Below, in pieces: positions 2,072 to 23,964 of a stretch of DNA of 64,000 nt (within the stretch, counting starts at the first letter, position 1; the number at the start of each line of letters is the position of its first letter). The stretch spans positions 1-64,000 of the forward strand of contig DXJO01000001.1 in NCBI GenBank assembly GCA_019057475.1. Direction: 5' to 3'. The position numbers and the translations under genes are program-made. The notes under the pieces were generated by a model, which was not told the origin of the DNA, searched no databases, and saw only the letters and a program-made list of their open reading frames with translations. The stretch is from Candidatus Thorarchaeota archaeon. Its GTDB lineage: Archaea; Asgardarchaeota; Thorarchaeia; Thorarchaeales; Thorarchaeaceae.

Positions 2072-2238
2072 GTTCTCTTCAAGGAATCATTTGTACTTAA
2101 TACCACGAATTAGAACAGGCTGTACAGGAAGTAGAACAGGAATTGAATACCCAGTTCAGTCGGGACCAGTGCTCGATGCTTGCAAGGCAACAGATTAATT
2201 GAACAGGCGTTTCTGTGTTATATGGCACATAGCACCTC

Positions 2239-2260
2239 AGAGTTGGCGCGCGCCAACTCT
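2239..2260. repeat. Perfect 22-bp palindrome AGAGTTGGCGCGCGCCAACTCT
   Basis: Sequence equals its own reverse complement; intergenic. Confidence 0.9.
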
Positions 2261-2308
2261 CCACTTGGAAAGCTCGGCATCAATTAGAATACCCTAGTTC
2301 CTTGGAAC

Positions 2309-2473
2309 TTAGCCCTTCTCTCGATAGGACGCCTCGATCTCCTCAAAGCGGCGTCGCATTGCGTCCTTGACGAACTCTGGATATGTAGTGTATCCGAGGT
2401 TATGCTTCTTGTTAATCTCTTCAAATCTCCTGCGGAACCCCAAGGGGATCTTCAGATTGTCATATTCGGGCAT
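2309..2473 (-). CDS. Small ribbon-helix-helix (CopG/Arc-like) DNA-binding protein, 54 aa
   Basis: Hand translation MPEYDNLKIPLGFRRRFEEINKKHNLGYTTYPEFVKDAMRRRFEEIEASYREKG; beta-strand, helix, GY.T..EFVKDA.R helix pattern. Confidence 0.75.
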   Translation of the reverse strand: MPEYDNLKIPLGFRRRFEEINKKHNLGYTTYPEFVKDAMRRRFEEIEASYREKG

Positions 2474-2494
2474 GGTCTACGAGTGGCGTATCTA

Positions 2495-2562
2495 TGGATT
2501 ATGTCTTATAGAGCTTGGCTTATCCATGAGTGGATAAACATTTATTAGCTATTGGTGGATAA
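2495..2562. promoter_or_regulatory. Operator-like repeat cluster between divergent RHH genes
   Basis: TTATCCA-TGAG-TGGATAA palindrome at 2520-2537, extra TGGATAA at 2556-2562 and TGGATTA at 2495-2501, with AT-rich TATA-like boxes interleaved. Confidence 0.65.
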
Positions 2563-2572
2563 TATATGTACC

Positions 2573-2725
2573 ATGACCGAGTACAGAAACATCAAGATAC
2601 CAGTCCCGCTCGCCGATATCATTGATGGTCTAATCCAGGGTGGAGAATACTCCTCACGTGCCGAGTACGTGAAGGAGGCAATACGGAACGACCTGCGAAA
2701 GCGTGGACTTCTCGGAGGAAGCTAG
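2573..2725 (+). CDS. Small ribbon-helix-helix (CopG/Arc/MetJ-like) protein, 50 aa
   Basis: Hand translation MTEYRNIKIPVPLADIIDGLIQGGEYSSRAEYVKEAIRNDLRKRGLLGGS; classic IDxLV..G.Y.SRAE.V.EAIR signature. Confidence 0.85.
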   Translation: MTEYRNIKIPVPLADIIDGLIQGGEYSSRAEYVKEAIRNDLRKRGLLGGS

Positions 2726-2769
2726 ATGCATTTTGAACCGAGCGACATAGCAACTGGACGTGAGGCCCT

Positions 2770-3084
2770 TCAGGAGTTCCTTGTTCCAGAGAGGATCAGT
2801 GTCAACGCAATGGTCCAGAACAGGATTGCTTCTCGTCCATTATCTGTGAGTGCATACATCCCATCGTTGTTCAGATGGATCAATGTCAAGAGTTTGCTGA
2901 TATGATGCTGAAGATTCTCGCTGCTAGATATGCTCAATTTGCGTTTCAACTCAGCGAAACCATGTGCTCGTTCTCGCAGGAAGAATAGAATTCTGATCCT
3001 TGTATTATGAGAGATAGTTTCAAAGAGAGAAGCTTCAGACATACCATCATTAGCGTTCCCGTTGTCAGCATGCGAAGATGTCAT
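2770..3084 (-). pseudogene. ArsR-like winged-helix regulator, probably C-terminally truncated or chimeric
   Basis: LFETISHNTRIRIL...FAELKRKLSISSSENLQHHISKL...YALTDNGREA followed by an unrelated-looking tail. Confidence 0.6.
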
Positions 3085-3573
3085 GATTACCTGCCTACTG
3101 TCAAAACATGCACGCAGTCATATAATACCCCGTTACGGGACTACCTTAGAACAACTCGCTGGGATTTGAAAGAAGGTACTGTAGCCACACCCAACCCGCA
3201 AAACAGATTCAAAGCCTGTCTGAAGCGAGTTATCCTGATAGTAACACTATCATTCAGCCATAGTTATCTTATAGTGATCAGTATCCGTGTATGAATTCTG
3301 CATCACATCACCGAATGGAACTGTAGCGACTTCTACGTCCGCCATATCAGTGAATTTCGTCCAATACGGATCTGCAACCACATTAGGTAATCGGCAGAAA
3401 GATTATAAAAATACTTACCAAAAAAATTGAACGTTTAAATCGTCCATTATCTACTGACTTATATTGCTTCGCATTCACGCCGATGTATCATGAATGATGA
3501 TATGAAAGTCAAGGATGCCACTGTGGCAGTCATGATTTCCCTTGCTTATGCATCTGGATGAAGGTGAGAACAG

Positions 3574-3855
3574 ATGAAGTTTGAGGACTACACGAAACTG
3601 GGCGAGTTGTTGAAGGAGGCTAGGGCAATCCTGTTCAGTCATAAGATCCCTCCAAAGGCAAAGCCTCTTACCAGACACCGCCAAGCGGCTATCAAGGGAC
3701 TGGACAGCGCCAGACATCATGCTGACGAGATGCTTTACCTAGAACATCCAAGAGTGGCTGCTGGCGATGTGTTCTATTTCAACGAGCCACCACCAGATGT
3801 GATTGAGGCACGATGTCAACTGGCTGACTCCAATCAGGGAGAACACGACCCATGA
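3574..3855 (+). CDS. Hypothetical protein, 93 aa
   Basis: ATG start preceded by GGTGA RBS; protein-like composition; no family recognised. Confidence 0.55.
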   Translation: MKFEDYTKLGELLKEARAILFSHKIPPKAKPLTRHRQAAIKGLDSARHHADEMLYLEHPRVAAGDVFYFNEPPPDVIEARCQLADSNQGEHDP

Positions 3856-4336
3856 GCAGACTCGGGAAGAAGAGGGCAAGGAAGAGAACAAGGCCCACAG
3901 ATAGGGTCCCAGTGATGTCTGAGAGGTCATCTGGAGCTGCCATCCCACAGAGGCAGCCTCAGCTCAGAATAGACCTCATCACTACAGCGGCAGCTATTAT
4001 GTAGTTCATGGTGCCAAGCAGCAAAGCGGAGTCCTAGTTTCCTCATCTCGGGATTAAGAGCAAAAAGACGAAACGGCCGATTGAGCTTTTCGAGAAAATC
4101 AGGCATTGAAGGGTACTCGCGAAGAACTCAAGCAAAGGCGATGTATGCAGATCCTCGTGCATAAGTGAAATGCTAGTAGACAGTCTGTCGAATTCAAAGA
4201 ACTTCGGTGCGCCAAATTCATCGGTACATTTCAGGATGATTCTATCCAAACCTTTTCACTCCCGCCCTAAATCAAGGGCAAATCCTTTTTTTTAACCTGT
4301 CTTTGCTTCTCGAGAAGTTATACTTACAAATTCATA

Positions 4337-4876
4337 CTATTCTGTGTCAGCATAGAATCGTTCATCTCGGGGCATAGTTAGATACTCCCAAGAATCAGAC
4401 ACAATATGCCTTGTAAGGAAGACTATTTGACCTATATGAAACGAGTAGTGTGTTAGCTGCCACCCTATTGCTTCTAGGACAGAATAGCGTTTCTTCCTGA
4501 TGAACACGCTTTTCATTAGGTCATTAGGTGTCAGTCCGGAAAGTGCATCAAAAACACATGCCCAGCCATCCTCCCAAGTCTTCAACAGTTCGTCTTTGGA
4601 TGCTCTGAAAGTTTGGTCAAATTCACCGGGTCTGTCCCGGGAAGGTTTCTCCCCATCAGTTGTCAGAAAATCTGTCCATCTAGATTTCATATTTCCCGCA
4701 AGATGCCGAATCAATATCGCGATGCTATTAGATTCCTCATCCAGAAGAAGAAACAAATCCTCCTCATTTTTCACTTGGTTGAAAGCCCTCTCTGCCTTCA
4801 GCTTCAGATATCGAAAGCGTTTCATGACATAATCAAGGAAGTGCTGGCCAACCGAAACTGTGGAACTATCACTCAT
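4337..4876 (-). CDS. DinB/DUF1572-family protein
   Basis: NSIAILIRHLAGNMKSRWTDFLTTDGEKPSRDRPGEF and QLTHYSFHIGQIV motifs; likely start MSDSST (ORF track extends to 4939). Confidence 0.85.
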   Translation of the reverse strand: MSDSSTVSVGQHFLDYVMKRFRYLKLKAERAFNQVKNEEDLFLLLDEESNSIAILIRHLAGNMKSRWTDFLTTDGEKPSRDRPGEFDQTFRASKDELLKTWEDGWACVFDALSGLTPNDLMKSVFIRKKRYSVLEAIGWQLTHYSFHIGQIVFLTRHIVSDSWEYLTMPRDERFYADTE

Positions 4877-5813
4877 ATTGACAAGTTTACCATACACAAT
4901 AAAAAAAGTGTTTTCAAACTGGTGACTAGCTATAGCCAATGCCCTGTCATCCTTTTAGGAGTCTTCTAAACTCAAGAGTCTTCTCAATAGTGAACACGCC
5001 CGATACCAAGTCTGGGACTGCTTGAAACAATGACGAAAACCAAATATGAAGATTAACTTGACGGTGTGCAAAATTGCTGGAAAACATCTTCTTCGCACAA
5101 TACCTAGAATTGGTTCAAGGAGTTGAATCAGGAATGAGCAATTGCCGGGGAAATGGGAATGAGAGAAGGAGTCAGAAAAAGAAGTGCACAGTCTGGTCTC
5201 GCCAGAGTGAATAGGCTTCCTGTTTCATTGGGAACATGTGGCGACATCTGGTCATGCTCGAAACATCTCGATGAATTCATGCAACTGATGAAGAAGACAG
5301 CGAGGAAGGCGACAGCAAGTGCTTGACCCGTTCGACTGTCTCTGCTTCCTCGTCTATGCAGTCATTATCGCGATTGCGTGCTTTTCCTACGGATACAAGA
5401 GAGGCATCGAAGTCTTTTCGATGGAGGTCTACCAAATCTAACCATGCCGTCACGGAGGAATTTCAAGCCGCTATTGCATTTCATTCAGGGTCATGGAAGA
5501 AATAGTGACCTTCGAAAAGCTTAGTCTGTATCACGAATGGAATTTGGACTGGGCATTACTGGCCTGGTGGGGCTCCCAGAATATGAAAATGGAACGCTCA
5601 AGGTGTCTGGCCTCAGGAGAGCGGGCATTTGCAAACTCCAATCAGGGACCTCTCCGATGCCATAACGCAGGTTGTTGCGTATCCCCAGCCAACCTGAACG
5701 AGGATGGAGGTTCATAACTCTTGAACCCTGACCGGCTCTAGGTACCTGGTGAACCCTACCATTCTAGGCACCGACAGTATTAAAGCAGTCATTACGTGTT
5801 TCGAGTGGTGACC

Positions 5814-6407
5814 ATGCCAGACATCAAGGAGAGTTTCGTGAGGGCTACTCCATATGAGCGCAGGATTGAGCTGCCTTATTGTTGTGTTCCTGCGGTTCTC
5901 CAAATGGTGCTCGAACGACGCCGGTTGCCAGTTCCAGAACAGGAGTCGATTGGAAATGAGCTGGGGTTGATAGTCCCTGAGGACGCAGCCCGCCATTTCG
6001 GTTGGGTTCGGACAGGTCAAAAGCCACAATCGGGATGGGGAACACAGACAAGGCTGGAAGAATTTTCGATTCAGCGCTATTTCAATCGGCACCATCTACC
6101 ACTTCAGATCGTTCGTTATCTTCCAGGCGAGATCTCGAATCTGCAAGAAGCCTTGGTTAGTCACCTAGAACAGAATAATGATGTAGTCTTGGTCGTTGAT
6201 CAACGCAAGCTTGTGGAACAAGGTGATGAGGAGCATGTTGTTCTAGTGCAAGGCTTGGACGGGGAATCGGTGCTACTTGTTGATCCAGCCAAAACCCGTC
6301 CTGACCTCTGTACAGTATCATTAGTCCAACTGACCGAGGCCATCGTTGAAGTATGGTCGATATCAGGCAAAGAAATCTTGAAAAGCTCTAGTCAACAGAC
6401 TCCTTGA
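5814..6407 (+). CDS. Peptidase C39-like (papain-fold) protein
   Basis: YCCVPAVLQMVL (catalytic Cys), HVVLVQG (His) and LLVDPA (Asp) pattern. Confidence 0.65.
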   Translation: MPDIKESFVRATPYERRIELPYCCVPAVLQMVLERRRLPVPEQESIGNELGLIVPEDAARHFGWVRTGQKPQSGWGTQTRLEEFSIQRYFNRHHLPLQIVRYLPGEISNLQEALVSHLEQNNDVVLVVDQRKLVEQGDEEHVVLVQGLDGESVLLVDPAKTRPDLCTVSLVQLTEAIVEVWSISGKEILKSSSQQTP

Positions 6408-6663
6408 CATGCGAATTGAGTCGGAGTCCTGGGCATTCTCAATGCTGTGATTTCTACCCAGAGGAAGGGAACAGCCATGGACATGTGTTGGAGAGTACCA
6501 GTCCAAGTTTCGAGGATGAGGAACACTTGGAGGAGGGAGAGAGGGCCAGTCAGAAGGGCAGTGACCCAACACAACCATACGTAGCGGTGCCAGAAAGGGT
6601 CTGCGTAGACTCGAGGGACCCTGGCAACAGGCACTAGAATCATCAGACGAGAGTCCGAGTTTT

Positions 6664-7489
6664 TTGATTGCTATTGAGAAGCCCGAGCTATATCAACAGC
6701 CTAACAGACAATGGCACATGGCGAAGGTCTTTCTCAAACTGGCCTCGGGAGGCTTAGAGGGGGTTGCTCAAAGCACGCAGGTCCCATATAGTACCCACTC
6801 GCCCCTCTTCGTCGACATCAGACGATTCAACAATGTCAGAAGACTGTGCAAAGTTCCATCCATACCAGGGGAGCCAAAGAAGACGACTGTGGTTTCGACC
6901 ACACTTGATGAAGTGGCTGCAACAATCGGGAAGGCGGATGGACAGATTGAGGGAGAATACAGTGGTGCTACTCTCCAGCCAAGACTCCAAACGTTGATGA
7001 CTCCATGGATGAACGAGGGGTTCTTTGCCGATGTCGCGGTCTTGCTTGAAGGAGGAACTAAAGGACCGTTACCGCCAGTCGGATTTGATGATTTTGTACT
7101 TCATGCTGATATTCAATAATGGTGCGAAGGACTGGGTCCACAGAACACGTACTGGATGGGACAAATCGAAGAACATGGCAGATGAGGGCTTCTCTCCCGA
7201 ATGGCATCACTTCTTCCCGAAGAACGTTCTCAGAAGACATGGCTATGATGAGGACCTAATGAATGCCTTCTCCAATATCACAATGCTCACTGAAAAGCAG
7301 CGCGCCTTTAGAACAAATCCCAAGGAATATGAGGCAGAATAGGGGCTTCCGAAGCGCTATCTGAAGCAGCAGTTCATTTCAGGTGACGAATCATTCCTGA
7401 GCCCGAGGAAGTACAAAGGGTTTCTGGATGAACGGACCACAATGCTGGCTAGGGAAATGAATGAGTTTCTTCGAAAGCTACGCGGGTAG
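6664..7489 (+). pseudogene. Remnant of a GmrSD-like (DUF262/DUF1524) modification-dependent restriction gene
   Basis: EWHHFFPK...NAFSNITMLTE (HNH-like DUF1524 motif); frame continues past TAG 7340-7342 as GLPKRYLKQQFI...YKGFLDERTTMLAREMNEFL; upstream part frameshifted. Confidence 0.6.
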
Positions 7490-7889
7490 AGTGCAAAACA
7501 ATGTCGGTTGCGTCATCTTGAAGATGGTGGACGAAATAGAGGGATGCGCGGGGCTCTTTGATAGCTGATACTAAGGAAACGCAACCTTCAGGAGCGGGCA
7601 AGATTGTCCTGAGGATACCATGTGTACTGAAAAGCGTTCTCTTTACATTGAGTTTATCCACGGTATTGGGAGAACGGTCACAAGAAAATGGAGGGATTAT
7701 TTAGGTGACATATCCAGCCGGATTGGATTCTTCAGAACGAGAGATTGGAATCGTGATATTCCTAGCACTCTCTGTCGCTGGAAGTGATACGTCAGCAGTA
7801 AGACAGGAGAAAGAAGCCAGGTCTGTGGGAAGGATCCTTGGGTTTCTGCTGGGCCTTGCTTCGGAGGAGGATGCACTGGAGAATATTCC

Positions 7890-8182
7890 CGAAGAAACTC
7901 CCTTCTGAGCGAAGTATGTCAAACACTGAGGAGAATATGTCTTCTCCAAGATGAATAGCTGGAGTTTTCCCATTGAGGAACTCATCGGGAAAACCGAGAA
8001 GGGTCTTATGAGCGGCATTCTGCTTGATGTACACGCCTTCCGAGTTCAGAATAGCAATCGTGTCGTTTGAGCACGTGAAGATTTCCTCGTATAATGTTTC
8101 ATGAATCGTACCTTTGCCAGTCGACTTACCATTGTCAAGGTTCTTCTTTCGTTGGGCACCTCTCTCTTGGTTTGCCAGTCAT
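7890..8182 (-). pseudogene. PAS-domain sensor fragment
   Basis: LYEEIFTCSNDTIAILNSEGVYIKQNAAHKTLLGFPDEFLNGK is a PAS signature; out of frame with ATG 8182 and truncated. Confidence 0.6.
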
Positions 8183-8280
8183 AATATTCCTACACCATTG
8201 GATGACTATTGTAGAGTAAAATGTAATTATGGAATGAGCGCTTATTAGAGTTAGCCAGAGAACACAGACTGTAGGTCTGG

Positions 8281-8760
8281 CTAGGTAGGAATCCACTTCC
8301 TCACATTCTTCTTGTACTTAAGGAACTCGTCACCGAATCTCTCCTCTAGTTTCTTCTCCTCATAGTTTGCTAGTGTATTATAGAAGGCGAAGATGATTAA
8401 CCAAACACCAATTGACGCAAGAGAGAAAGTTGCTATGGCAAGGCCAAGATAGAAGAGATGGGTTCCAAGGTACATTGGGTGCCGGACTCGCCCAAAGATT
8501 CCTGTTGTCGCTAGACCTTCCCTATGGGCATCAAGGAGATCCTTATGAGATGCGTTCATGAAATACGCAGCCACTACAATGACTACAGCTCCCAATCCAA
8601 TAAATATCCAGAAAAAGGTCAAGTTCCAGAGAAATGTCGTGACTCGCAGAAGAAATGAGTCTAGAATCCACACCACCAAAAATACAATCATCAGAATCAT
8701 CTGATATCTGTGACTCCCTGACATCTCTCCTGTTAAGTGGTCATGACTATATCCAGGCAT
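8281..8760 (-). CDS. Isoprenylcysteine carboxyl methyltransferase / PEMT-family membrane protein
   Basis: L.TTGIFGRVRHPMYLG and EEKKLEERFGDEFLKYKKNVRKWIP motifs; several TM helices. Confidence 0.9.
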   Translation of the reverse strand: MPGYSHDHLTGEMSGSHRYQMILMIVFLVVWILDSFLLRVTTFLWNLTFFWIFIGLGAVVIVVAAYFMNASHKDLLDAHREGLATTGIFGRVRHPMYLGTHLFYLGLAIATFSLASIGVWLIIFAFYNTLANYEEKKLEERFGDEFLKYKKNVRKWIPT

Positions 8761-8925
8761 AATGAATCATCCTAACATAGCTGAGGTTGCTTTTGTGGTT
8801 GATGATTCATAATGATATTAATCAACAAAGCGGTCACAGCATCCACCATATCTTGGTCCAAGGAATACTCATATTAGCTGTCTCGGGTACAAGCGACAAT
8901 GCACCCACAATGATCATGGTTCAAC

Positions 8926-9295
8926 ATGCAAAGATGTTTCTCCAATGACTACGAAACTCTCTTTGGGTCGGCCCCTAACACTAGCATCATTGAGATATAC
9001 CTTGTAGCAGAATCAGAAACCGGTGGACGAATAGAGATACTGTTTGATGACTTTTATCTCTACGGAGACCCGACACCTGACGTGCACAGCGTGGTGCATT
9101 CTCCCAGCAGTCCCGAAGCTGATGATGCTGTTGAGGTTACGGCTATCGCCATCGATCCAAGCCTGGACACCGTTAGGCTTTACTACAGGGTTGATGAAGG
9201 GTCTTGGACCAATCTGGAGATGAGTTTAATAGTAGACGACAGCTATAACGCATCCATTCCTGGGCAGCCAGAGGATTCAGTGGTTGAATACATTT
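8926..9295 (+). pseudogene. Internal fragment of an extracellular Ig-like protein
   Basis: VEVTA.AID....VRLYYRVDEGSWTNLEM....YNASIPGQ...VVEY beta-sandwich motif; no N-terminus; breaks off at about 9295. Confidence 0.55.
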
Positions 9296-9320
9296 TCTTA
9301 AGTAAATGTTTTTGCCATCT

Positions 9321-10799
9321 TCATGGCCTCGCGCGCACACGCAGCGAGTCGAGTATCTTCTCGAACTCTGGGATCCTCAGCCCCGTCCTCGCGATCAGGA
9401 TATCGTAAACCCTCTGGATATGTCCCTCAGCCTCTCTCATCAACTCTACCGTCTCAGGTCGCATACCCATCTCCTCCGCCCCGCATGTGAGAGATACGGC
9501 GAAATCGGTGATCCTCCTGAGGACGGACAACACCTCGAAGTACTCGTAGTTTCGGACCTCACTCCCCGAGATCCTCTCATACGCTCTTAGGATAGTTTCT
9601 CTCAGGGATGGGTCCCAGAAGGTGCTGGCGAGGAGTATGCTCCAGGCGAGGTCGTCCCTGAGGTCCCCGACAGTGGCCGTCCCCCAGTCGATGACGACGG
9701 GGGAGCCGTCCACCCTGAGCATGATGTTCATCGGTCCAAAGTCCTTGTGGATGACCGAGGGCTTCTCCGGGGAAACACTCGACTTACGCTCATCCAGCCA
9801 TCTGATTAAGGGATCTAGCCAACCGATTCTGCTCTGCGCCGTCCTATCTTCATACCATTTGAGAACCTCGTCTATGTAGCCTATCGTGGTCGTACCCTCT
9901 CTGCCGGGGAACACCAGCGACACGTCCAGGCTGTGGAGGTCGACGAACAGCTTCATGAACATGCCCATGAGCTGCTCAAGCCTCTCCTCTGAGCCCACTC
10001 GGAGCTCATCCACCATGTTCCGCCCTTTGACCCGCTCCATGATGATGAAGGGCTTCCCCAAGTCGATCCCATCTGTATCAAGTTGGTAAACCTCCGGAAC
10101 CGGATAGCCGGCTTCAAGCAGTCTGCTAATCACCCTGAACTCATGGGCGGCCTTTTCTGCGGAGTTGAACCCGGGATAGAGCCTAATCACACGCTCTTCT
10201 CTGACTTGTCGCCCGTCTTCCTCGAACTCGATGATGAAGGTGTGGAGCTCGGTCTCCCACCCAGAGGTTATGTCCTCGACCTCAGAGATGGTTAGATTAA
10301 TTTTTTCAGGGTACTTCTGAATGTAGTAACTGGAAAGGCCTTCGGCGGTTAGGGTCAATTTACCTTTCTCTGATAGGATATCCTTTGATTCCTCTAGAGA
10401 TTTTTTCAATCTTTTCTCGCATTCTTTTTGGAGCCAAAGCCAACTGCGAAGGTACCATTCACTACTCCAAGTATCCATTTGTTCTTCAACCCATTTCACT
10501 GGTCCGACAGCCTTACGTCTTCTCAAATTTTCTATAACTGGCAAATGGTGCAGCCAAACAGGGCTATGGCAGAACATTATAAGAGCTGAACAGGGAAATT
10601 CTTCACATTCGGAACAGGCTTTGTTGTTTCTCTGTTCAACGCAACATTTGTAAACATTACACCTTTCATGATGCCCTGAAGAGTCACATCCTCCACAGTC
10701 ACATCCGCAGCCATGACAGCTCTTGTAAATTAGATAATCTATGCAAGCCCCACAATACAGACCGCAGGGCGCGGCAAGCTTGTTTTCTTCAACTTTCAA
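9321..10799 (-). CDS. Fusion of a DUF3795-like Cys-rich domain and an aminoglycoside-phosphotransferase (APH/choline kinase)-like domain
   Basis: APCGLYCGAC...CCVEQ...CSECEEFPC N-terminus; PVPEVY, IIMERVKG, IHKDFGPMNI, VIDWG kinase motifs. Confidence 0.8.
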   Translation of the reverse strand: MKVEENKLAAPCGLYCGACIDYLIYKSCHGCGCDCGGCDSSGHHERCNVYKCCVEQRNNKACSECEEFPCSALIMFCHSPVWLHHLPVIENLRRRKAVGPVKWVEEQMDTWSSEWYLRSWLWLQKECEKRLKKSLEESKDILSEKGKLTLTAEGLSSYYIQKYPEKINLTISEVEDITSGWETELHTFIIEFEEDGRQVREERVIRLYPGFNSAEKAAHEFRVISRLLEAGYPVPEVYQLDTDGIDLGKPFIIMERVKGRNMVDELRVGSEERLEQLMGMFMKLFVDLHSLDVSLVFPGREGTTTIGYIDEVLKWYEDRTAQSRIGWLDPLIRWLDERKSSVSPEKPSVIHKDFGPMNIMLRVDGSPVVIDWGTATVGDLRDDLAWSILLASTFWDPSLRETILRAYERISGSEVRNYEYFEVLSVLRRITDFAVSLTCGAEEMGMRPETVELMREAEGHIQRVYDILIARTGLRIPEFEKILDSLRVRARP

Positions 10800-10892
10800 T
10801 ATCGTTCTCCCTCGTGCGAGGTCATATTAGTTCCTCCAATATGACGCGCGCGCAAGTCTAATAAAAGATAATCATACATTAATAAGATTAAA

Positions 10893-11300
10893 ATGGTAAA
10901 AACTGAGTATTTCATCGATCCCGATAAGGCACCAAAGTTTACTCAGATAGAAGGATTGGAGACCACAATCCTCACCGGGCTATATGGGGAGAGTATGATG
11001 ATGGTCTTCAATGCAACCCTACCAGGTCATGAGGTTCCGATCCACAGCCACCCCAACGAGCAGGTCGGCGTAGTATATAACGGGGAAGCCATCCTAAGGA
11101 TTGGCGAAGAGGAGAGACACGTGAAAAAGGGAGACCTTTACTGCATACCAGCAGATGTGCCTCATGGCGATACTGTAATCGGTGACGAATCTTTCGTGAT
11201 GCTAGATATCTTCTACCCGGTAAGGGAAGATTTTATCGCTAGAGTTGCGCGCACGCCCATCGAGGAGGTCTTCTCCTTCGAGGATGAAGAAATAAAATAG
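10893..11300 (+). CDS. Cupin-domain protein
   Basis: PIHSHPNEQVG and IPADVPHG metal-binding motifs; DIFYPVREDF. Confidence 0.9.
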   Translation: MVKTEYFIDPDKAPKFTQIEGLETTILTGLYGESMMMVFNATLPGHEVPIHSHPNEQVGVVYNGEAILRIGEEERHVKKGDLYCIPADVPHGDTVIGDESFVMLDIFYPVREDFIARVARTPIEEVFSFEDEEIK

Positions 11301-11338
11301 CTTATCTTACTACACAGTAGGATGGAGCGCATTCGATG

Positions 11339-11630
11339 TTATATTAGTTCTCCAAGTATAGATATCATGCTCAATACTTTAGATAGGATGTCCGTATAGG
11401 TTATTATGCCTACGAGTTTCTCCTTCTTCATGACTGGTATCTTCCTGACCCGCTTCTCCGCCATGATTTTAACCACCTCAGCCAAGCTCGCGGACTCGCA
11501 TATCGTCATCACCGGGCTAGTCATGATTTGCCTTGCTGCAATGGTTTCCGGGGATAGACAAGGCTCAACTACCCTCCTGAGGACATCGCGTTCGGATATC
11601 ACACCGACCGACTTCTCGTCCGTTGAATCA
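11339..11630 (-). pseudogene. CBS-domain protein, 5' truncated
   Basis: GVISERDVLRRV...IMTSPVMTI...VRKIPVMKKEKLVGIITYTDIL; first half of the CBS pair is missing. Confidence 0.7.
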
Positions 11631-11686
11631 ACTTGAGCCCCTTACTGGCATTCTGCATTCATTGGTCCGGAGTGGGTCATTAGGCT

Positions 11687-13000
11687 CTACCTGGTTATGT
11701 CAAGCTGCATAAGTTTCATGCATGTTTCAGTCCGTTCCTCAACTATCCTCGCACGATGCGAATTTCTGAAACGGAGCTTAACCTCATCTGTATACAGCTC
11801 GGACCTCTTTCCTCTATACTCACCGAACACGTATCCAATCTTCTCTAGCTCCACAACGCCGTATAGCAATGACAGGCCAACTAGGAGAACAACGAAGCTC
11901 CTGTCGGTAGCGTCCATGGTCCGGGTTATCTTACTAGGAAGCACAAGAATCGTCCCGCCTACATCTTGGGCTAGCTCACAGAAATCGTACATGTTCTTAT
12001 CCGCGGACACAAGATTCACGCTCACACCCCGTTCGTGAGCGAATTTCTCCAGTTCATCGACGATCAGATGGTCAACATCTTCCTTGTCCTTGGGGAGATC
12101 TACTCGGCGCGTTTCCTCGTGTGTTGGCCGCTTCATGAATTTGGTCAGTTCGGACTTGGCCATCTTGGCAACCCTTGTTTCGAGAGTGTTCTGACCAACG
12201 AACTCATTAATCAAGGAGCCCAAATTGCGGGAATTGTAGTAATCCCGCGCATCATGGATTTCTCGTGATTTGTACTTCCGTTTGATCTTATCCTGAATCT
12301 CCTTCACAACTGGGAAGGCAGTAACACAGACTACATCTTTCGGTGGTATACTAAGCTGTGTTTCCAGTTTCGCAAGGTAAGAGGGAAAACCATTGTAGTG
12401 CATATTTGAATCAAGCGAGAGAACGGCTTTTCGTACTCCACTAGTGAAGTCGGGGGACTTGCAGAGTTTCTTTGTCAACAGATTGTGGAATCTATCTCTG
12501 TTCTGATAGTCTATGAAACCACAGAAGCACAGACATCTTCGGAGGTCCGAGTAAGTCGGATGATCCCATCCGCGGTAACCATTAGCATCGCGCTTCTCTC
12601 CGTAGTCCATCGAGTCTGTTAGCATCGTGACTTTCCCATCCCGAATGCTCAGTTCGAGAAGGTCAACACCAAATAACGGTGCCTTCACTCTGATCCGCTC
12701 GCCGCGCCTATAGGCCTGATTGAGAACAATCATCACACAGTCCCTTGACAAGAGCATATCGGTGAGCTTGCTTTCGGACTCAAATTCAACAGTAGCGCTC
12801 TGGACTTCATTTGTGACTAGGTCAATGAGTTTCTGGATCCTTTCTGGAATCATCAGATAGGGCTTAGCTACTCCCTCAACTGTTTCGATTGCATGGTAGT
12901 AGACGTGGTCAAGACCTTGGTCTTTCAGAGCGAGTAGACTGCCGACCACAAGTGCTTTTCGTCCGCCTGTGATATCTACCGCGACTTCTTTGGAGCCGCA
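11687..13000 (-). CDS. CARF-domain plus PIN-domain protein, N-terminus apparently truncated
   Basis: VAVDITGGRKAL (CARF motif); LSLDSN, DVDHLIVDE, LVSADKNM (PIN acidic motifs); the ORF-track N-terminal ~50 aa is antisense to the neighbouring gene. Confidence 0.65.
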   Translation of the reverse strand, partial: CGSKEVAVDITGGRKALVVGSLLALKDQGLDHVYYHAIETVEGVAKPYLMIPERIQKLIDLVTNEVQSATVEFESESKLTDMLLSRDCVMIVLNQAYRRGERIRVKAPLFGVDLLELSIRDGKVTMLTDSMDYGEKRDANGYRGWDHPTYSDLRRCLCFCGFIDYQNRDRFHNLLTKKLCKSPDFTSGVRKAVLSLDSNMHYNGFPSYLAKLETQLSIPPKDVVCVTAFPVVKEIQDKIKRKYKSREIHDARDYYNSRNLGSLINEFVGQNTLETRVAKMAKSELTKFMKRPTHEETRRVDLPKDKEDVDHLIVDELEKFAHERGVSVNLVSADKNMYDFCELAQDVGGTILVLPSKITRTMDATDRSFVVLLVGLSLLYGVVELEKIGYVFGEYRGKRSELYTDEVKLRFRNSHRARIVEERTETCMKLMQLDITR

Positions 13001-13033
13001 CAGGAGGGATTCAGAGATGATACTGCGGCCTTT

Positions 13034-13930
13034 GTGGTTCCGCCTGGGGACCTGAAGTTCGTGCTGTGGGCACTGGAAAAACTGGTTCAAGGCGACGGTA
13101 ATGCATTCATTTACTTGGTGATGGCAGCTGCGGTTTGCCGTGAGAAACCCCCAGCCTTTCATTTGGACACGGTTGGGGTTGATAAGAGCGCTCTCAGCGT
13201 CATCTTCAAGGTTTCGGAAACAATGGCCGAGGCTCTTTCACAGGCAGGTGTCTTCGTGGAGGGGGAAGTGCCGCATTACTACGATGTCGCACACATGTGT
13301 CTGAGGAACAAAGAAGTCATCAGCATGGGATACTTGTATCTCACGGATAGGCGTCTGATATGTGTGGGAGGACTGCAGGGTCCATTAACCCACGACTCCA
13401 CAGCGTACAGAATCCTCTACGATGACCGAAAGTCCCAGCCCTACTTGGGATCACTGGACTACATCTACCTAGACAAGATTCGGGGTATTCGTTCAGACTA
13501 TGGCCTCCTGAAGAAACAGGTCAGCGTTGAGTACCATACGAAGTACATTAAGGAGAAGGGACGCACGCTCTACGGCCCTCTCTTCTTTAAGATGGACCTT
13601 GCCACCAAGACCAGTGTCTAGGAGGGGCCCGTCGATGTACTCATTCAGATTACAGAGCCCATGGACACACGGAAAGTGCGACAAGAAGAACTGCTGAGAA
13701 GGATTGAGCGTTTAATAAAGTAGCAACAATGCCTGTATAGTCCAGTGATTCCCTTTCTTTTGTCAATGCTGACAGACCAACAGATGTTTGACCTGGACGA
13801 GCTGAACCAGCAGTGGTACGAGTATGATGAATACTGGTCAGAAGTCCAACAAACGACTCCAAAGGTTGACAAGCTGATAGCTGAGTTCAATGAAAAGGTG
13901 GGCCTAGTCTAGACCAAGAACATCTGGTGA
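13034..13930 (+). pseudogene. Fragmentary protein with PH/GRAM-like segment, interrupted by in-frame TAG codons
   Basis: GYLYLTDRRLI motif; same frame stays open apart from TAG at 13619, 13721 and 13910 until TGA at 13928. Confidence 0.5.
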
Positions 13931-20759: not shown

Positions 20760-21989
20760 CTATCTCTTCCTATAGAACACGACTCTTAACATCCACTCAT
20801 GCGCGATACTCTCTCTCAACCCATCAGGAATGTTGTTATCCATAGCATTCATAATTACCTTCTCGATTGCCCCATGTTCATTGCTTCGTATGAACTCGAT
20901 TTCCTGAGCCTTCCGCGCGAACTCACCCAGTTTGTGTCTCAGGGATTCGTCATCACTGGACATAAGGCTCAACCATTCTGGCGGGATTTTGTCAGTCACA
21001 ACCATGTGAATCAAATCCTCAAGATTCGCTAGACGGTCCTTCAAGGTCCCCAACTCTGATGTGCTCTCATTCATTCGCCGCCCACAACTCATGCAGACCC
21101 TTGCCAATGCGTCATTATTCTCCTTGCAGTGGGGGCACTCACGAAGAGTCATCATAGGTTCAAACGTGCCGTTATCTTCCAAACCATATGCTTTGGACCG
21201 TAGTTCTCTCTCAACATCGACCTGACTTAGATGGATGTAGACGGATTCCATCATACTCCCCGGTCTCCAACCAGCGAACTTACGCAGATGTTCTCCTCTG
21301 ATTCCCAGTTTCACCAACTCGGTCAATCTGGAGTGCCTGAACATATGGCAAGTCTTTCGTTTTTTGAGACCGGCCCGTGATACAATCTTCTTCACGACTT
21401 GGAAGAGACCCGTGTAAGACAGTGTTGATAGTTCACCCTTCAGAGTGACCCAGGTCGATCCTTCTCCTGTGGGATGTGCCTCAATCCACGCCTTAAGTGA
21501 AGGAACAGAACGATACAACAAGAGTTCGCGAACGCCAGTCTTGCCTGTCACTGTGATGTGTGCTGTCTTATCTTCGTTGAATCGCACATCTTCGATTTTC
21601 ATGGATAACAGTTCCGATGCCCGCGCCGCCGACTCGTATAAAACGCGAACAACGGCTCTGTCTCTCGTCTCATATGCCGATGCGAATATCAATTCTAATT
21701 CCTTTGCCGTGAACAGGTCTTTGACAGTAACACCCTCGACCTTGGGCAGGGCAACCTTATCGAGTTCATCAGTCGGAAGACTCAACCATTTTAGCACTCG
21801 TCTGGCGGCCTTCTTTTCATTGCGAACCGTCTGCGGGCTGACCTCCTGCATCCGGTCCCGTAGCCATTTCGGTGTGAGACCCATTGGTGGCGGAAGTCGT
21901 GATAGCATAGCGCGTAGATTCCTAAGAGTACTCGGTTTGACGTGGGACATTGTGACCAAGAAACGTTTGTAATCCTTATGTAGAACCAT
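20760..21989 (-). CDS. Tyrosine recombinase/integrase with C-terminal zinc ribbon
   Basis: Full catalytic set: YESAARASEL (R), GKTG (K), HMFRHSR (HxxR), AGW, SVYIH (Y); CPHC..CMSC ribbon; GGTGA RBS before ATG 21989. Confidence 0.95.
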   Translation of the reverse strand: MVLHKDYKRFLVTMSHVKPSTLRNLRAMLSRLPPPMGLTPKWLRDRMQEVSPQTVRNEKKAARRVLKWLSLPTDELDKVALPKVEGVTVKDLFTAKELELIFASAYETRDRAVVRVLYESAARASELLSMKIEDVRFNEDKTAHITVTGKTGVRELLLYRSVPSLKAWIEAHPTGEGSTWVTLKGELSTLSYTGLFQVVKKIVSRAGLKKRKTCHMFRHSRLTELVKLGIRGEHLRKFAGWRPGSMMESVYIHLSQVDVERELRSKAYGLEDNGTFEPMMTLRECPHCKENNDALARVCMSCGRRMNESTSELGTLKDRLANLEDLIHMVVTDKIPPEWLSLMSSDDESLRHKLGEFARKAQEIEFIRSNEHGAIEKVIMNAMDNNIPDGLRESIAHEWMLRVVFYRKR

Positions 21990-22038
21990 AGTTTCACCTG
22001 CAATTACCACACAGAAATCGCAGATAAGACTTATGTTG

Positions 22039-22347
22039 CTATCCTAATGAGTCTCGAAGACTCATCGACATCTTTTGCTCAAGATGTTCTTTGAAACAAG
22101 CTAGACCATAGACAAGCCCTGCAATCGTCTTAGCACTCTCAACCTTGCGGCCATCGACGAACGATGGAACCGCATTCACCGGCTCGTAGCCGTTCTCCGA
22201 CCATTCGACGTTCTTCTTCGAAGACCCGTAGTAACCTATCTCTGGAAATTCGCCGTTATTTATCGTGTCAGCGAGTGTGCCAAGCACATCATCAATGAGT
22301 GACATTACTTCTGGTGTGGTTGCTGAATTGCTTCCTTTTTTCATCAC
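22039..22347 (-). pseudogene. top6A: DNA topoisomerase VI subunit A, 5' fragment only (102 aa)
   Basis: Directly downstream of top6B; SAKTIAGLVYGL..FKEHLEQKMSMSLRD matches the Top6A/Spo11 region preceding the (T/S)LR(D/E)xYY catalytic motif, then SLG-stop. Confidence 0.75.
22047..22065. other. Putative att site: ATGAGT-CTCGAAG-ACTCAT (6-bp inverted arms, 7-bp spacer)
   Basis: Palindrome coincides with the point where top6A similarity ends, about 60 bp upstream of the integrase start. Confidence 0.7.
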
Positions 22348-22359
22348 TTGAAGACCCTC

Positions 22360-23964
22360 CTAGTTTCCAAGAAGATTGACCAGAGAAACCTCTTGATCTG
22401 TCGCCATGCCCAGCGTTTCTGCTATGAATTCATAGTAGCCAACTAATCTGCTCTCTCGCCTTTCTTGCTGATGCACCCTTCGTTTCCGCCTAACGCCTTC
22501 GCCAAGTTTTCTCAAACAATCCTTGAGTCCGAGGTCAATCTCCCGACGAACCACGTCGATATCTCCGATGAACTCCTTACCCACCGTCTTGTAAGGGATC
22601 TTGGTGGAGCAAATGTGTACAAAGAAGGCGAGAGGGTCATCCTGACGAAGACCATAATTCTTGAGATTAAGCTCCCTAATGACTTGGCTAGATACATCGG
22701 TGCGTTCGTCGTACAACAACGGAATGCGGTTTGCAAATCTGTACAGTCTTATGGCTGGTGTTAGTTCACCACCGTAGGCAGCGCCGATTTCCACAATGAA
22801 TGGATGTCCTTCATAGACACTGGGCGGTCTCTGTCGTACTACAACGAACTCCGGCTTGAGCCTTCTAATCCCCGCCTCCAGCACATCGAGGCCTGCAGGT
22901 GAAAGCGACTTGCTGGAGGGAGCTAGAAAACCGCCGTATGCCTCGAGTTTTTTCATCATGTGAACAAGATTCTCATTGCTTAATGCCTTGGGCGCGGCTG
23001 CTGGGTCCAAACCAGCTGAAGCTAGGAATTTCTCAGCTGTTGATTCGCCCATTCTCTGGAAAGAGCCCCTTAGGAATGACTTGAGCGTGCTCCTGCGCGA
23101 CTCCTTTATCATTCTCTTGAGCATCTCAACGTCTATCCCTCTTGGATGCGGCTTCGCCTCCTTTGGCTGTTGTGGCAGCGTTTCTATGATTCGAGTCAGT
23201 TGAAGTGACTCTCCGTCGGGGTTATCGAAGCGCATAGATGCGTATGGAACGATCATGCTTGTCTGCAAGAAGTACTCCGTAATGCGCCGTTTGCTACGGA
23301 ACCAATCCCCTTGCAGATAAAATTCGATGGTAGTACCATGTTCTCTTGGATCCTTTGGCTGTTGCTCTTCATGAACCAATATTGGTTCGTTATTCTCAAT
23401 GTCCAGCCTCATCACGATTTTGTGCTTGCTTTCTTCTCCGATGCGTCCGGTTGTTATCTTGATTGGTCTTTGAGTTGTAATTTGACCATAGAGAAGAGCA
23501 AGGCTGCCACCGAGACCGAAGGTGCCTCGACTCTGCTTTAGAGTGAACCTAGTTGAAGTGAGCATCCTGCCCAGGAGTCGAGGGGCGTCTTCTCTCCTGA
23601 TTCCTGATCCGTTATCTTGGATGCGGAGTCCAAAAACCTGCGGGCCTCTTAGAATATCCTCTGCTTCTGAGGAATCCGTTTTCAAATGCTGCAATGACAC
23701 GTGCACTTCGGGTAGCACTTCCGTGCCTTCGCAGGCATCTAGACTATTTTCAACGAGCTCTCTAACAGAAACATAGAGCGATCTTGCGGGGTTGTCGAAA
23801 CCAGCTATCGTTCGATTCCTGTAGAACCATGCTGATACTGATAATTCTACGACGTCCGAGTCTGAGTGGCGCAATGACTGCAATATGGAGGCTCCTGTAT
23901 TTTCTACAGGACGTCTTCGGTGAAATCGGGCTATGAAGCGTGGTATTATCCATACGACATTCAA
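22360..23964 (-). CDS. top6B: DNA topoisomerase VI subunit B
   Basis: VRELVENSLDACE, DNGSGI, QSRGTFGLG, RFANRIPLLYD, STKIPYKTVGKE; true start may be somewhat downstream. Confidence 0.97.
   Translation of the reverse strand: MNVVWIIPRFIARFHRRRPVENTGASILQSLRHSDSDVVELSVSAWFYRNRTIAGFDNPARSLYVSVRELVENSLDACEGTEVLPEVHVSLQHLKTDSSEAEDILRGPQVFGLRIQDNGSGIRREDAPRLLGRMLTSTRFTLKQSRGTFGLGGSLALLYGQITTQRPIKITTGRIGEESKHKIVMRLDIENNEPILVHEEQQPKDPREHGTTIEFYLQGDWFRSKRRITEYFLQTSMIVPYASMRFDNPDGESLQLTRIIETLPQQPKEAKPHPRGIDVEMLKRMIKESRRSTLKSFLRGSFQRMGESTAEKFLASAGLDPAAAPKALSNENLVHMMKKLEAYGGFLAPSSKSLSPAGLDVLEAGIRRLKPEFVVVRQRPPSVYEGHPFIVEIGAAYGGELTPAIRLYRFANRIPLLYDERTDVSSQVIRELNLKNYGLRQDDPLAFFVHICSTKIPYKTVGKEFIGDIDVVRREIDLGLKDCLRKLGEGVRRKRRVHQQERRESRLVGYYEFIAETLGMATDQEVSLVNLLGN

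Follow-up and report, generated by a model that had tools for sequence, protein, structure and literature searches.

The split top6A locus

The stretch of DNA considered here, called the window throughout, comprises positions 1 to 64000 of contig C47 in G000, a metagenome-assembled genome (MAG) of Candidatus Thorarchaeota that consists of 56 contigs and is 96% complete. The minus strand of the window carries a top6B gene, an open reading frame (ORF) of 102 amino acids (aa) that resembles the beginning of top6A, and a gene for a tyrosine integrase, with a palindrome near the end of the ORF. An initial annotation of this DNA had placed all four features here, where each was found again, and had taken them for one att end of an element that targets the active-site codons of Top6A. 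That reading holds: the locus is attL, the second core, F-Y-Y and the TOPRIM half of the gene lie on another contig (C12), and three genomes have the empty site. Very probably, an integrative genomic island with an Xer-like integrase at one end has been inserted in the coding sequence (CDS) of a third, divergent Top6A paralogue. The relatives used for comparison are the same-genus genomes G004, G005 and G006, together with 86 family genomes for a survey of the P arm and core (described below), and the junctions were analyzed exclusively in static assemblies (the MAG, ENA, NCBI and JGI).

The 102-aa ORF consists of native residues 1-99 (22051-22347) followed by an element-encoded S-L-G and a stop codon (22039-22050), giving the C-terminus ...MSMSLRD-SLG-stop. 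BLASTP against the intact orthologue of G005 (381 aa) gives 91/99 identical positions over residues 1-99 (92%, E=6e-66). Profile hidden Markov model (HMM) similarity to Top6A, on which the initial annotation had staked its view of this ORF, is formally absent, with zero Pfam matches; the silence of Pfam arises because the fragment is without most of the short TP6A_N profile, and it is superseded by the BLASTP identity. The remainder of the gene was located by a profile search of G000 for Top6A families, as a 303-codon open frame on C12 that begins ...TSLRDFYYMHK and carries the TOPRIM domain. This frame is 98% identical to residues 96-381 of the intact orthologue and overlaps the N-terminal fragment by SLRD. 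A second core followed in frame by xYY and the TOPRIM half had been expected to the left of the window; it exists, on C12. The genome search of G000 found no third-paralogue top6A other than the split copy, and G004, G005 and G006 have the 381-aa gene uninterrupted.

The intact orthologue aligns to Top6A of M. mazei (2Q2E, E=1.3e-18) with SLRDFYY placed on TLRELYY, and it contains the 5Y-CAP motif R-D/E-x-aromatic-Y, which in G000 is divided over two contigs. The F-Y-Y right after the core holds the catalytic tyrosine, in keeping with what is established for the 5Y-CAP domain of Top6A and Spo11.

Anatomy of the junctions

Both junctions of G000 carry the same 14-bp core, GAGTCTTCGAGACT, which is present as a single copy in the empty attB of the relatives. 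When compared with contig C30 of G005 (L029), C47 is colinear from 26000 back to 22050 with positions 4345-8295, and C12 is colinear from 6619 on with positions 8282-13663, the two flanks overlapping by 14 bp at 8282-8295. Colinearity of the flanks with G004, G005 and G006 extends over kilobases at 87-94% identity, and the empty site is also found in an ENA contig (L080). The two marks of site-specific integration, one core repeated exactly at the two junctions and an unoccupied site in near relatives, are both present. The order at attL is top6A codons 1-99, core, P' arm and integrase, while at attR, on C12, it is P arm, core and top6A codons 100-381. The first 8 nucleotides (nt) of the P' arm, CATTAGGA, resemble the P' arms of related sites and the remainder diverges.

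The initial annotation had described a palindromic att site with a core of the form 6-7-6. The palindrome is there; its arms follow an 8-3-8 arrangement instead, and the segment of identity is 14 bp long. Within the core the palindromic portion is AGTCT-TCG-AGACT, and it is only in the hybrid attL that the arms reach 8 bp, attB having a 5-3-5 arrangement. Since the window holds 14 comparable palindromes against about 7 in shuffled sequences, the palindrome alone is not evidence, and its significance comes from its position, which coincides with the junction defined by the relatives.

On C12 the core is preceded by a TGA and then 16 in-frame foreign codons, DTDNFSSGEQTYSTTL, none of which is a start codon (ATG, GTG or TTG), the first ATG coming after YY. 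No Top6A-like N-terminal domain is found upstream of the core on C12, where the neighboring ORFs encode membrane proteins and an Nmad3-domain protein, and the suggestion that the far end of the element might supply a replacement 5' half has to be given up. The 5' piece ends after S-L-G and the 3' piece has no start before the catalytic tyrosine; therefore, the gene is off while the site is occupied. The most plausible mechanism is that the attP of the element recombined with the identical 14-bp core in top6A, at the S-L-R-D codons just before F-Y-Y, which would leave the third top6A knocked out for as long as the site is occupied. Since the two ends carry the same core, the gene would be restored by precise excision.

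A misassembly at about 22045 had been allowed for in the initial annotation. Repeats do break the 56-contig MAG near both junctions, contig C14 being a repeat hub that matches the ends of C10, C12, C4, C36 and C39. However, JGI sample 3300032107, an independent assembly that appears to represent the same population as the source MAG, reproduces the attL and attR contexts at 99.97-100% identity; there, this attL lies within a contig of 260 kb and this attR stands at the beginning of one of 191 kb. Logan run SRR1964815 matches C12:1204-4928 at 100%. The same junction types occur in other datasets, and the repeat at the join measures only 14-21 nt, below usual assembler k-mer sizes. A chimeric join at this position, created by assembly or by binning, is hardly conceivable.

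Table 1. Positions of features at the split top6A locus and of related sites (window coordinates unless a contig of G000 is named)
Feature	Position	Strand	Remarks
top6B, third Topo VI operon	22360-23964	-	Pfam Topo-VIb_trans, E=2.7e-51, and HATPase_c (GHKL ATPase domain)
top6A 5' fragment, 102-aa ORF	22039-22347	-	BLASTP to intact G005 orthologue
Palindrome	22047-22065	.	ATGAGTCTCGAAGACTCAT = ATGAGTCT-CGA-AGACTCAT; 8-bp arms, 3-nt spacer
att core of attL	22050-22063	-	GAGTCTTCGAGACT; 14-bp identity segment; encodes (M)SLRD
P' arm	21990-22049	-	Between core and integrase start; GGTGA 5 nt before ATG 21989; no oligo-T run
Tyrosine integrase, Xer-like, intact ORF	20760-22010 (GTG) or 20760-21989 (ATG)	-	PF00589, E=1.9e-21
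Island cargo	1-20759	.	Pfam, PADLOC; runs off contig start
att core of attR	C12:6619-6632		GAGTCTTCGAGACT
top6A 3' half	C12:6569-7480		303-codon open frame
Orphan attP-type modules	C9:3839, C10:505, C33:3759, C51:31047	- for C10	P arm, core, P' arm; no adjacent integrase
Intact top6B-top6A operons	C21:163389-166533, C39:39101-43470

The integrase

The integrase has a PF00589 match above the curated cut-off and the complete R-K-H-R-H/W-Y set of tyrosine recombinases, comprising R130, K157, H222, R225, W248 and Y258, where R130 and H222/R225 were placed by alignment to XerA and K157, W248 and Y258 by motif position. The initial annotation had claimed an integrase with all catalytic residues starting some 60 bp on and on the same strand, and both parts of the claim stand, with 60 nt from the core to the ATG. 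The ATG at 21989 is a likelier start than the GTG; it is preceded by GGTGA, and the JGI gene call is exactly this 409-aa product. Counted from the GTG or the ATG, the gene begins 28 or 49 nt after the stop codon of the top6A fragment, with the core 39-60 nt upstream. Lying on the same strand with no oligo-T run in between, it might be transcribed from the top6B promoter.

XerA of P. abyssi is the best solved match (4A8E, E=2.9e-10), and the protein also matches the phrog_1 integrase (E=1.3e-26). Its C-terminus has a zinc ribbon at residues 291-312 (CPHC...CMSC, 292-309) and a tail of about 100 aa (window 20760-21140). The zinc ribbon is also seen in P0003, a homologue with 42% identity. The nearest relatives of the integrase within the family genomes are 44-48% identical, and no tRNA gene lies near the integrase, its paralogues or C12. 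Closer still is a JGI protein on contig Ga0451374_29369 that is 92% identical and shares only an internal 771 bp (window 21009-21779) at 96.5% identity. This protein has another N-terminus and belongs to a defense island with FokI-like, NYN, OLD-like and MmeI-like genes. Judged by its sequence, the integrase is a mosaic.

Recurrent use of the site

The P arm and core (…CAGACTTATTCTAyAACTCTTAC-GAGTCTTCGAGAC) recur, each time followed by a conserved P'-type arm. Besides the four orphan modules of G000, such modules are present in a same-genus MAG labeled Candidatus Thorarchaeota and in two JGI contigs. Among the 86 family genomes surveyed, the P arm and core are found only in G000 (5 copies) and G001 (1 copy). 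The exact core is confined to this genus, synonymous changes having removed it in other genera. Junctions of attL type (top6B, top6A-N, core, P'-type arm) occur at the identical position in ENA ERZ25073595, ENA ERZ25074855 and NCBI GCA_004376425.1, where the top6A-N ORFs finish with SLRD and then S/L-LDGEL-stop, and a junction of attR type (P arm, core, top6A-C) in JGI 3300037246. Because these top6A junctions combine the same arms and core, the modules are predicted attP-type sites, with the third-paralogue top6A sequence as their attB.

Occupied and empty alleles coexist in public data. The 90%-identity cluster of intact orthologues also holds 105-aa proteins ending MSMSLRD-SLDGEL or MSMSLRD-LLDGEL and a 279-aa protein starting MHKVKRV, and two split halves, P0139 (98/98) and P0133 (279/279), match the intact protein P0128 at every residue. 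It follows that the occupied and empty alleles differ by very recent events, and the recurrent junctions together with the identity of intact and split protein point to a recurrent, recently used attB. The core is thus the regular attB of a mosaic element family in this genus and not the site of a one-off accident. Among family genomes bearing the paralogue, G000 alone has an occupied gene.

The attP-type module, about 110 bp in length, has no Rfam match and folds no better than shuffled sequences (z=-0.65), and for these reasons it is taken as a DNA site and not an RNA gene. The orphan modules were also considered as attR sites in a repeated attB, an idea that was rejected since every copy of the post-core sequence has the P arm on its left. 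For those on C33 and C10 it is possible that they are the junctions of tandem arrays at top6A; this does not fit the C9 and C51 copies, both of which border conserved chromosome. The C9 and C51 modules also adjoin a repeat of about 190 bp (e.g. C9:3894-4086 and C51:31103-31295) that has many copies per genome across the genus, spread over numerous contigs. Since the orthologous G005 site lacks it, it is likely to be a small mobile repeat. In relatives the empty C9 site has the sequence CCATACCGTTCATTGTAAG, a homologue of the distal P' arm.

Extent and cargo of the island

The element sides of the two junctions consist of accessory DNA, amounting to 27.7 kb from attL and 8.8 kb from attR, that is, at least about 36 kb. 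Window positions 1-20759 and C12:1-4758 have only short scattered matches in the same-genus genomes. The 260-kb JGI contig, which holds both attL and the integrase, continues 28 kb past C47:1, and the first 5.7 kb of this extension, with HEPN_AbiV, a Holliday-junction-endonuclease-like gene, HD, CBS and an ABC transporter, is absent from relatives. The 191-kb JGI contig that starts with attR is 100% identical to C12 over 11.1 kb, and an 8.4-kb JGI contig extends 2.2 kb past C12:1. The JGI contigs also break within the element.

That the two junctions lie on separate contigs allows for another reading, in which the integrase recombined the top6A site with a resident attP-type module, leaving the halves of the gene distant or inverted and flanked by DNA that does not form one element. 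Integrase-driven inversions have been described in Thermococcales (see references in PMC6563490), and G000 has its four extra attP-type modules, two of them beside conserved chromosome. Against such a chromosomal rearrangement, all of the element-side DNA seen is accessory and absent from relatives, and the same attL and attR types are seen in other samples, as ordinary integration predicts. We consider a rearrangement very unlikely.

The visible cargo includes two flavodoxin-like/aldo-keto-reductase units, a luciferase-like monooxygenase, a wHTH gene, CARF-PIN and a cupin, as well as an APH kinase, PEMT, an OLD/Gabija-like ATPase relic, a C39-like peptidase, a DinB-like gene and DUF3160. No virion, packaging, replication or conjugation genes were found in the visible island with Pfam, the middle of the island lying outside the assemblies; the virion or packaging hallmark genes of a provirus are thus not seen in the visible part. 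A PHROGs scan of the island ORFs gives the integrase as the only annotated match, two others matching families of unknown function, and IMG/VR has no match to the P arm with core or to the core with P' arm.

Several observations on the island stand by themselves. The HEPN_AbiV and Holliday-junction-endonuclease-like genes lie at L105:15349-16299, within the 5.7 kb that is missing from the MAG. The CARF-PIN gene (window 11687-13162; PADLOC CARF_PIN, E=3.7e-21) has a 90%-identical copy at C40:46253-47643 and an 89% match in G006. A 151-aa ORF at 6664-7119 matches only the C-terminal part of OLD/Gabija/AriA-type ATPases and is probably a defense gene relic. Between DUF3160 and the DinB-like gene lie some 2.3 kb (2072-4336) in which neither strand has an ORF as long as 120 aa. 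A repeat of about 70 bp (7768-7837) is shared by many contigs of G000 and the same-genus genomes, frequently at their ends.

State of the third topoisomerase VI operon

G000 has three top6B-top6A operons for topoisomerase VI (Topo VI), in agreement with a third Top6A/Top6B copy reported for Thorarchaeia in 2025 (PMC12680538). The top6B of the window is one of three copies in the genome and is intact, with a longest ORF of 534 aa and a JGI gene call of 507 aa. The two further Top6A genes, on C21 (381 aa) and C39 (713 aa), are complete, and their operons are intact. The C39 protein is extended at its N-terminus by about 330 aa; this part is rich in Lys and by eye resembles repeated GVG-containing segments of helix-hairpin-helix type. 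The search for other intact top6A copies that the initial annotation had called for therefore ends with two whole Topo VI operons, because of which the cell probably tolerates the loss of the third top6A. The same annotation had left a choice between an excision switch and a replacement half, and this misses the plain knock-out, which, tolerated alongside the two other intact operons, is the most likely outcome.

The split paralogue is 74-98% conserved across the family. In all 12 of the 12 third-paralogue sequences aligned (G000 and the 11 orthologues L018-L028), the TOPRIM DxD is replaced by D-M-S; the TOPRIM Glu (VEKE) is kept, leaving the acidic set E...DxD incomplete. The other two G000 paralogues retain DGD and DSD. 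Metal binding or activity of the third Top6A may consequently differ from that of canonical Topo VI. The ratio of nonsynonymous to synonymous substitution rates (dN/dS) is 0.04-0.15 between the G000 halves and the relatives and 0.02-0.10 among the intact relatives, and the halves have accumulated zero frameshifts or stops. With both halves undecayed and top6B whole, the insertion is either recent or reversible.

In another reading, the island would be an immobile, fixed relic and the split top6A a young pseudogene heading for decay. The ATPase fragment in the cargo shows that the island does hold a gene relic; moreover, an excisionase was not found, nor were replication, conjugation or virion genes in the visible part. 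However, that part excludes the middle of the island. The ORF of the integrase and the two cores are undamaged, and the gene halves are free of frameshifts and stops with dN/dS unchanged. We allow this explanation a small but real chance, greater than that of the other alternatives.

Alternatively, the element might act as a reversible switch, excising under some condition and rebuilding a working third Topo VI in the way of the nifD and skin elements or of "active lysogeny" at comK. The exact copies of the 14-bp core would make excision scarless; both top6A halves and top6B are undamaged with low dN/dS; the target gene is highly conserved; occupied and empty alleles with identical protein coexist; and the integrase is placed where read-through of the operon could express it. 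All of these features are equally expected of a recently integrated selfish element. The elements at the site are a mosaic of differing cargos, some without an adjacent integrase, and occupancy is in the minority, being restricted to G000 among the family genomes with the paralogue. A regulated excision switch is therefore possible but unsupported by these sequences, and we think it quite unlikely. In its furthest-reaching form, the third Topo VI-like enzyme with its altered metal-binding TOPRIM would be toggled by integration and excision of this element family, which would place a DNA-cleaving activity related to Spo11 under reversible control in an Asgard archaeon; or else the gene might be a target of the elements on account of a product that is directed at them. 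We regard either as very unlikely.

Some observations weigh against the favored explanation, namely site-specific integration of an island by its own integrase. Neither an excised circle nor an empty site from the same population was observed in the static assemblies, and no excisionase candidate was identified. The close relative of the integrase on Ga0451374_29369 has different surroundings that lack such a core, and an attL in contig L081 has no integrase within 5 kb, so that the link between this integrase and the core comes down to their adjacency in G000; the integrase would be the likely catalyst of the event, and the element may still be able to excise. The C9 and C51 modules lie about 42 nt from conserved chromosome, which implies unexplained modes of insertion or rearrangement in the family. 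Finally, attL and attR are on separate contigs in the MAG and in JGI, and no assembly examined closes the island, for which reason we infer, rather than observe, the direct orientation of the ends and a single continuous insertion between them.

Comparison with known systems

What is new in this system is a family of elements that uses the active-site codons of Top6A as a dedicated attB and knocks the gene out; no report of top6A as an integration target was found in the literature. Among integrated mobile genetic elements (iMGEs) of Thaumarchaeota, 14 of 68 used protein-coding genes, always at a 3'-distal position (Krupovic et al. 2019, PMC6563490; reviewed in PMC8371274), and the legend to Figure 2C of PMC6563490 describes the original stop codon of the host gene together with a second one introduced by the inserted element. 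The Thorarchaeota island shares with these elements a tyrosine recombinase with a short att repeat, verification by an empty site in a close relative, and a mosaic cargo that includes defense genes; tandem insertions are also known for them. In contrast to the Thaumarchaeota iMGEs, the site here falls within the catalytic motif (codon 96-100 of 381), and the lost part is not replaced. The archaeal insertions described in protein-coding genes lie at the 3' end and do not disable the gene, whereas this island shuts it off.

With the pNOB8-type (type II) archaeal integrases and XerA this enzyme shares an Xer-like catalytic domain and a gene that integration leaves whole. Unlike them, it has a zinc ribbon and a tail of about 100 aa appended at the C-terminus and no tRNA target, and its identity to any characterized integrase is low. 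The "suicidal" (type I) integrases of SSV type (PMC7253208) are likewise archaeal tyrosine integrases of integrative elements. In these the att site is inside the int gene, which is split on integration, while here the host gene is split and int remains whole, placing the element outside that type. For an Asgard lineage with almost no genetic tools, the 14-bp att site and the candidate integrase provide a defined starting point.

The split gene belongs to the extra Asgard Top6A/Top6B pairs of which the third Thorarchaeia pair is an example, and the portion of PMC12680538 at hand contains no mention of a mobile-element insertion or of the DxS variant of TOPRIM. Occupied and empty alleles here form a natural pair of knock-out and wild type for probing the role of this additional, TOPRIM-altered Topo VI of Thorarchaeia.

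Bacterial elements of similar design are nifD/XisA of Anabaena, skin/sigK of B. subtilis, the comK prophage of Listeria (PMC7397523) and phiSa3 in hlb of S. aureus (PMC6597384). These elements also lie inside a CDS between exact repeats that allow scarless restoration, encode the recombinase at an end of the element, and are found as coexisting occupied and empty alleles. They differ in that regulated excision has been demonstrated for them, whereas the Thorarchaeota island is known from static assemblies and the cell retains two intact paralogous operons. The island nonetheless offers a concrete case for asking whether gene-interrupting "switch" elements of the kind known from nifD, skin, comK and hlb exist in archaea.

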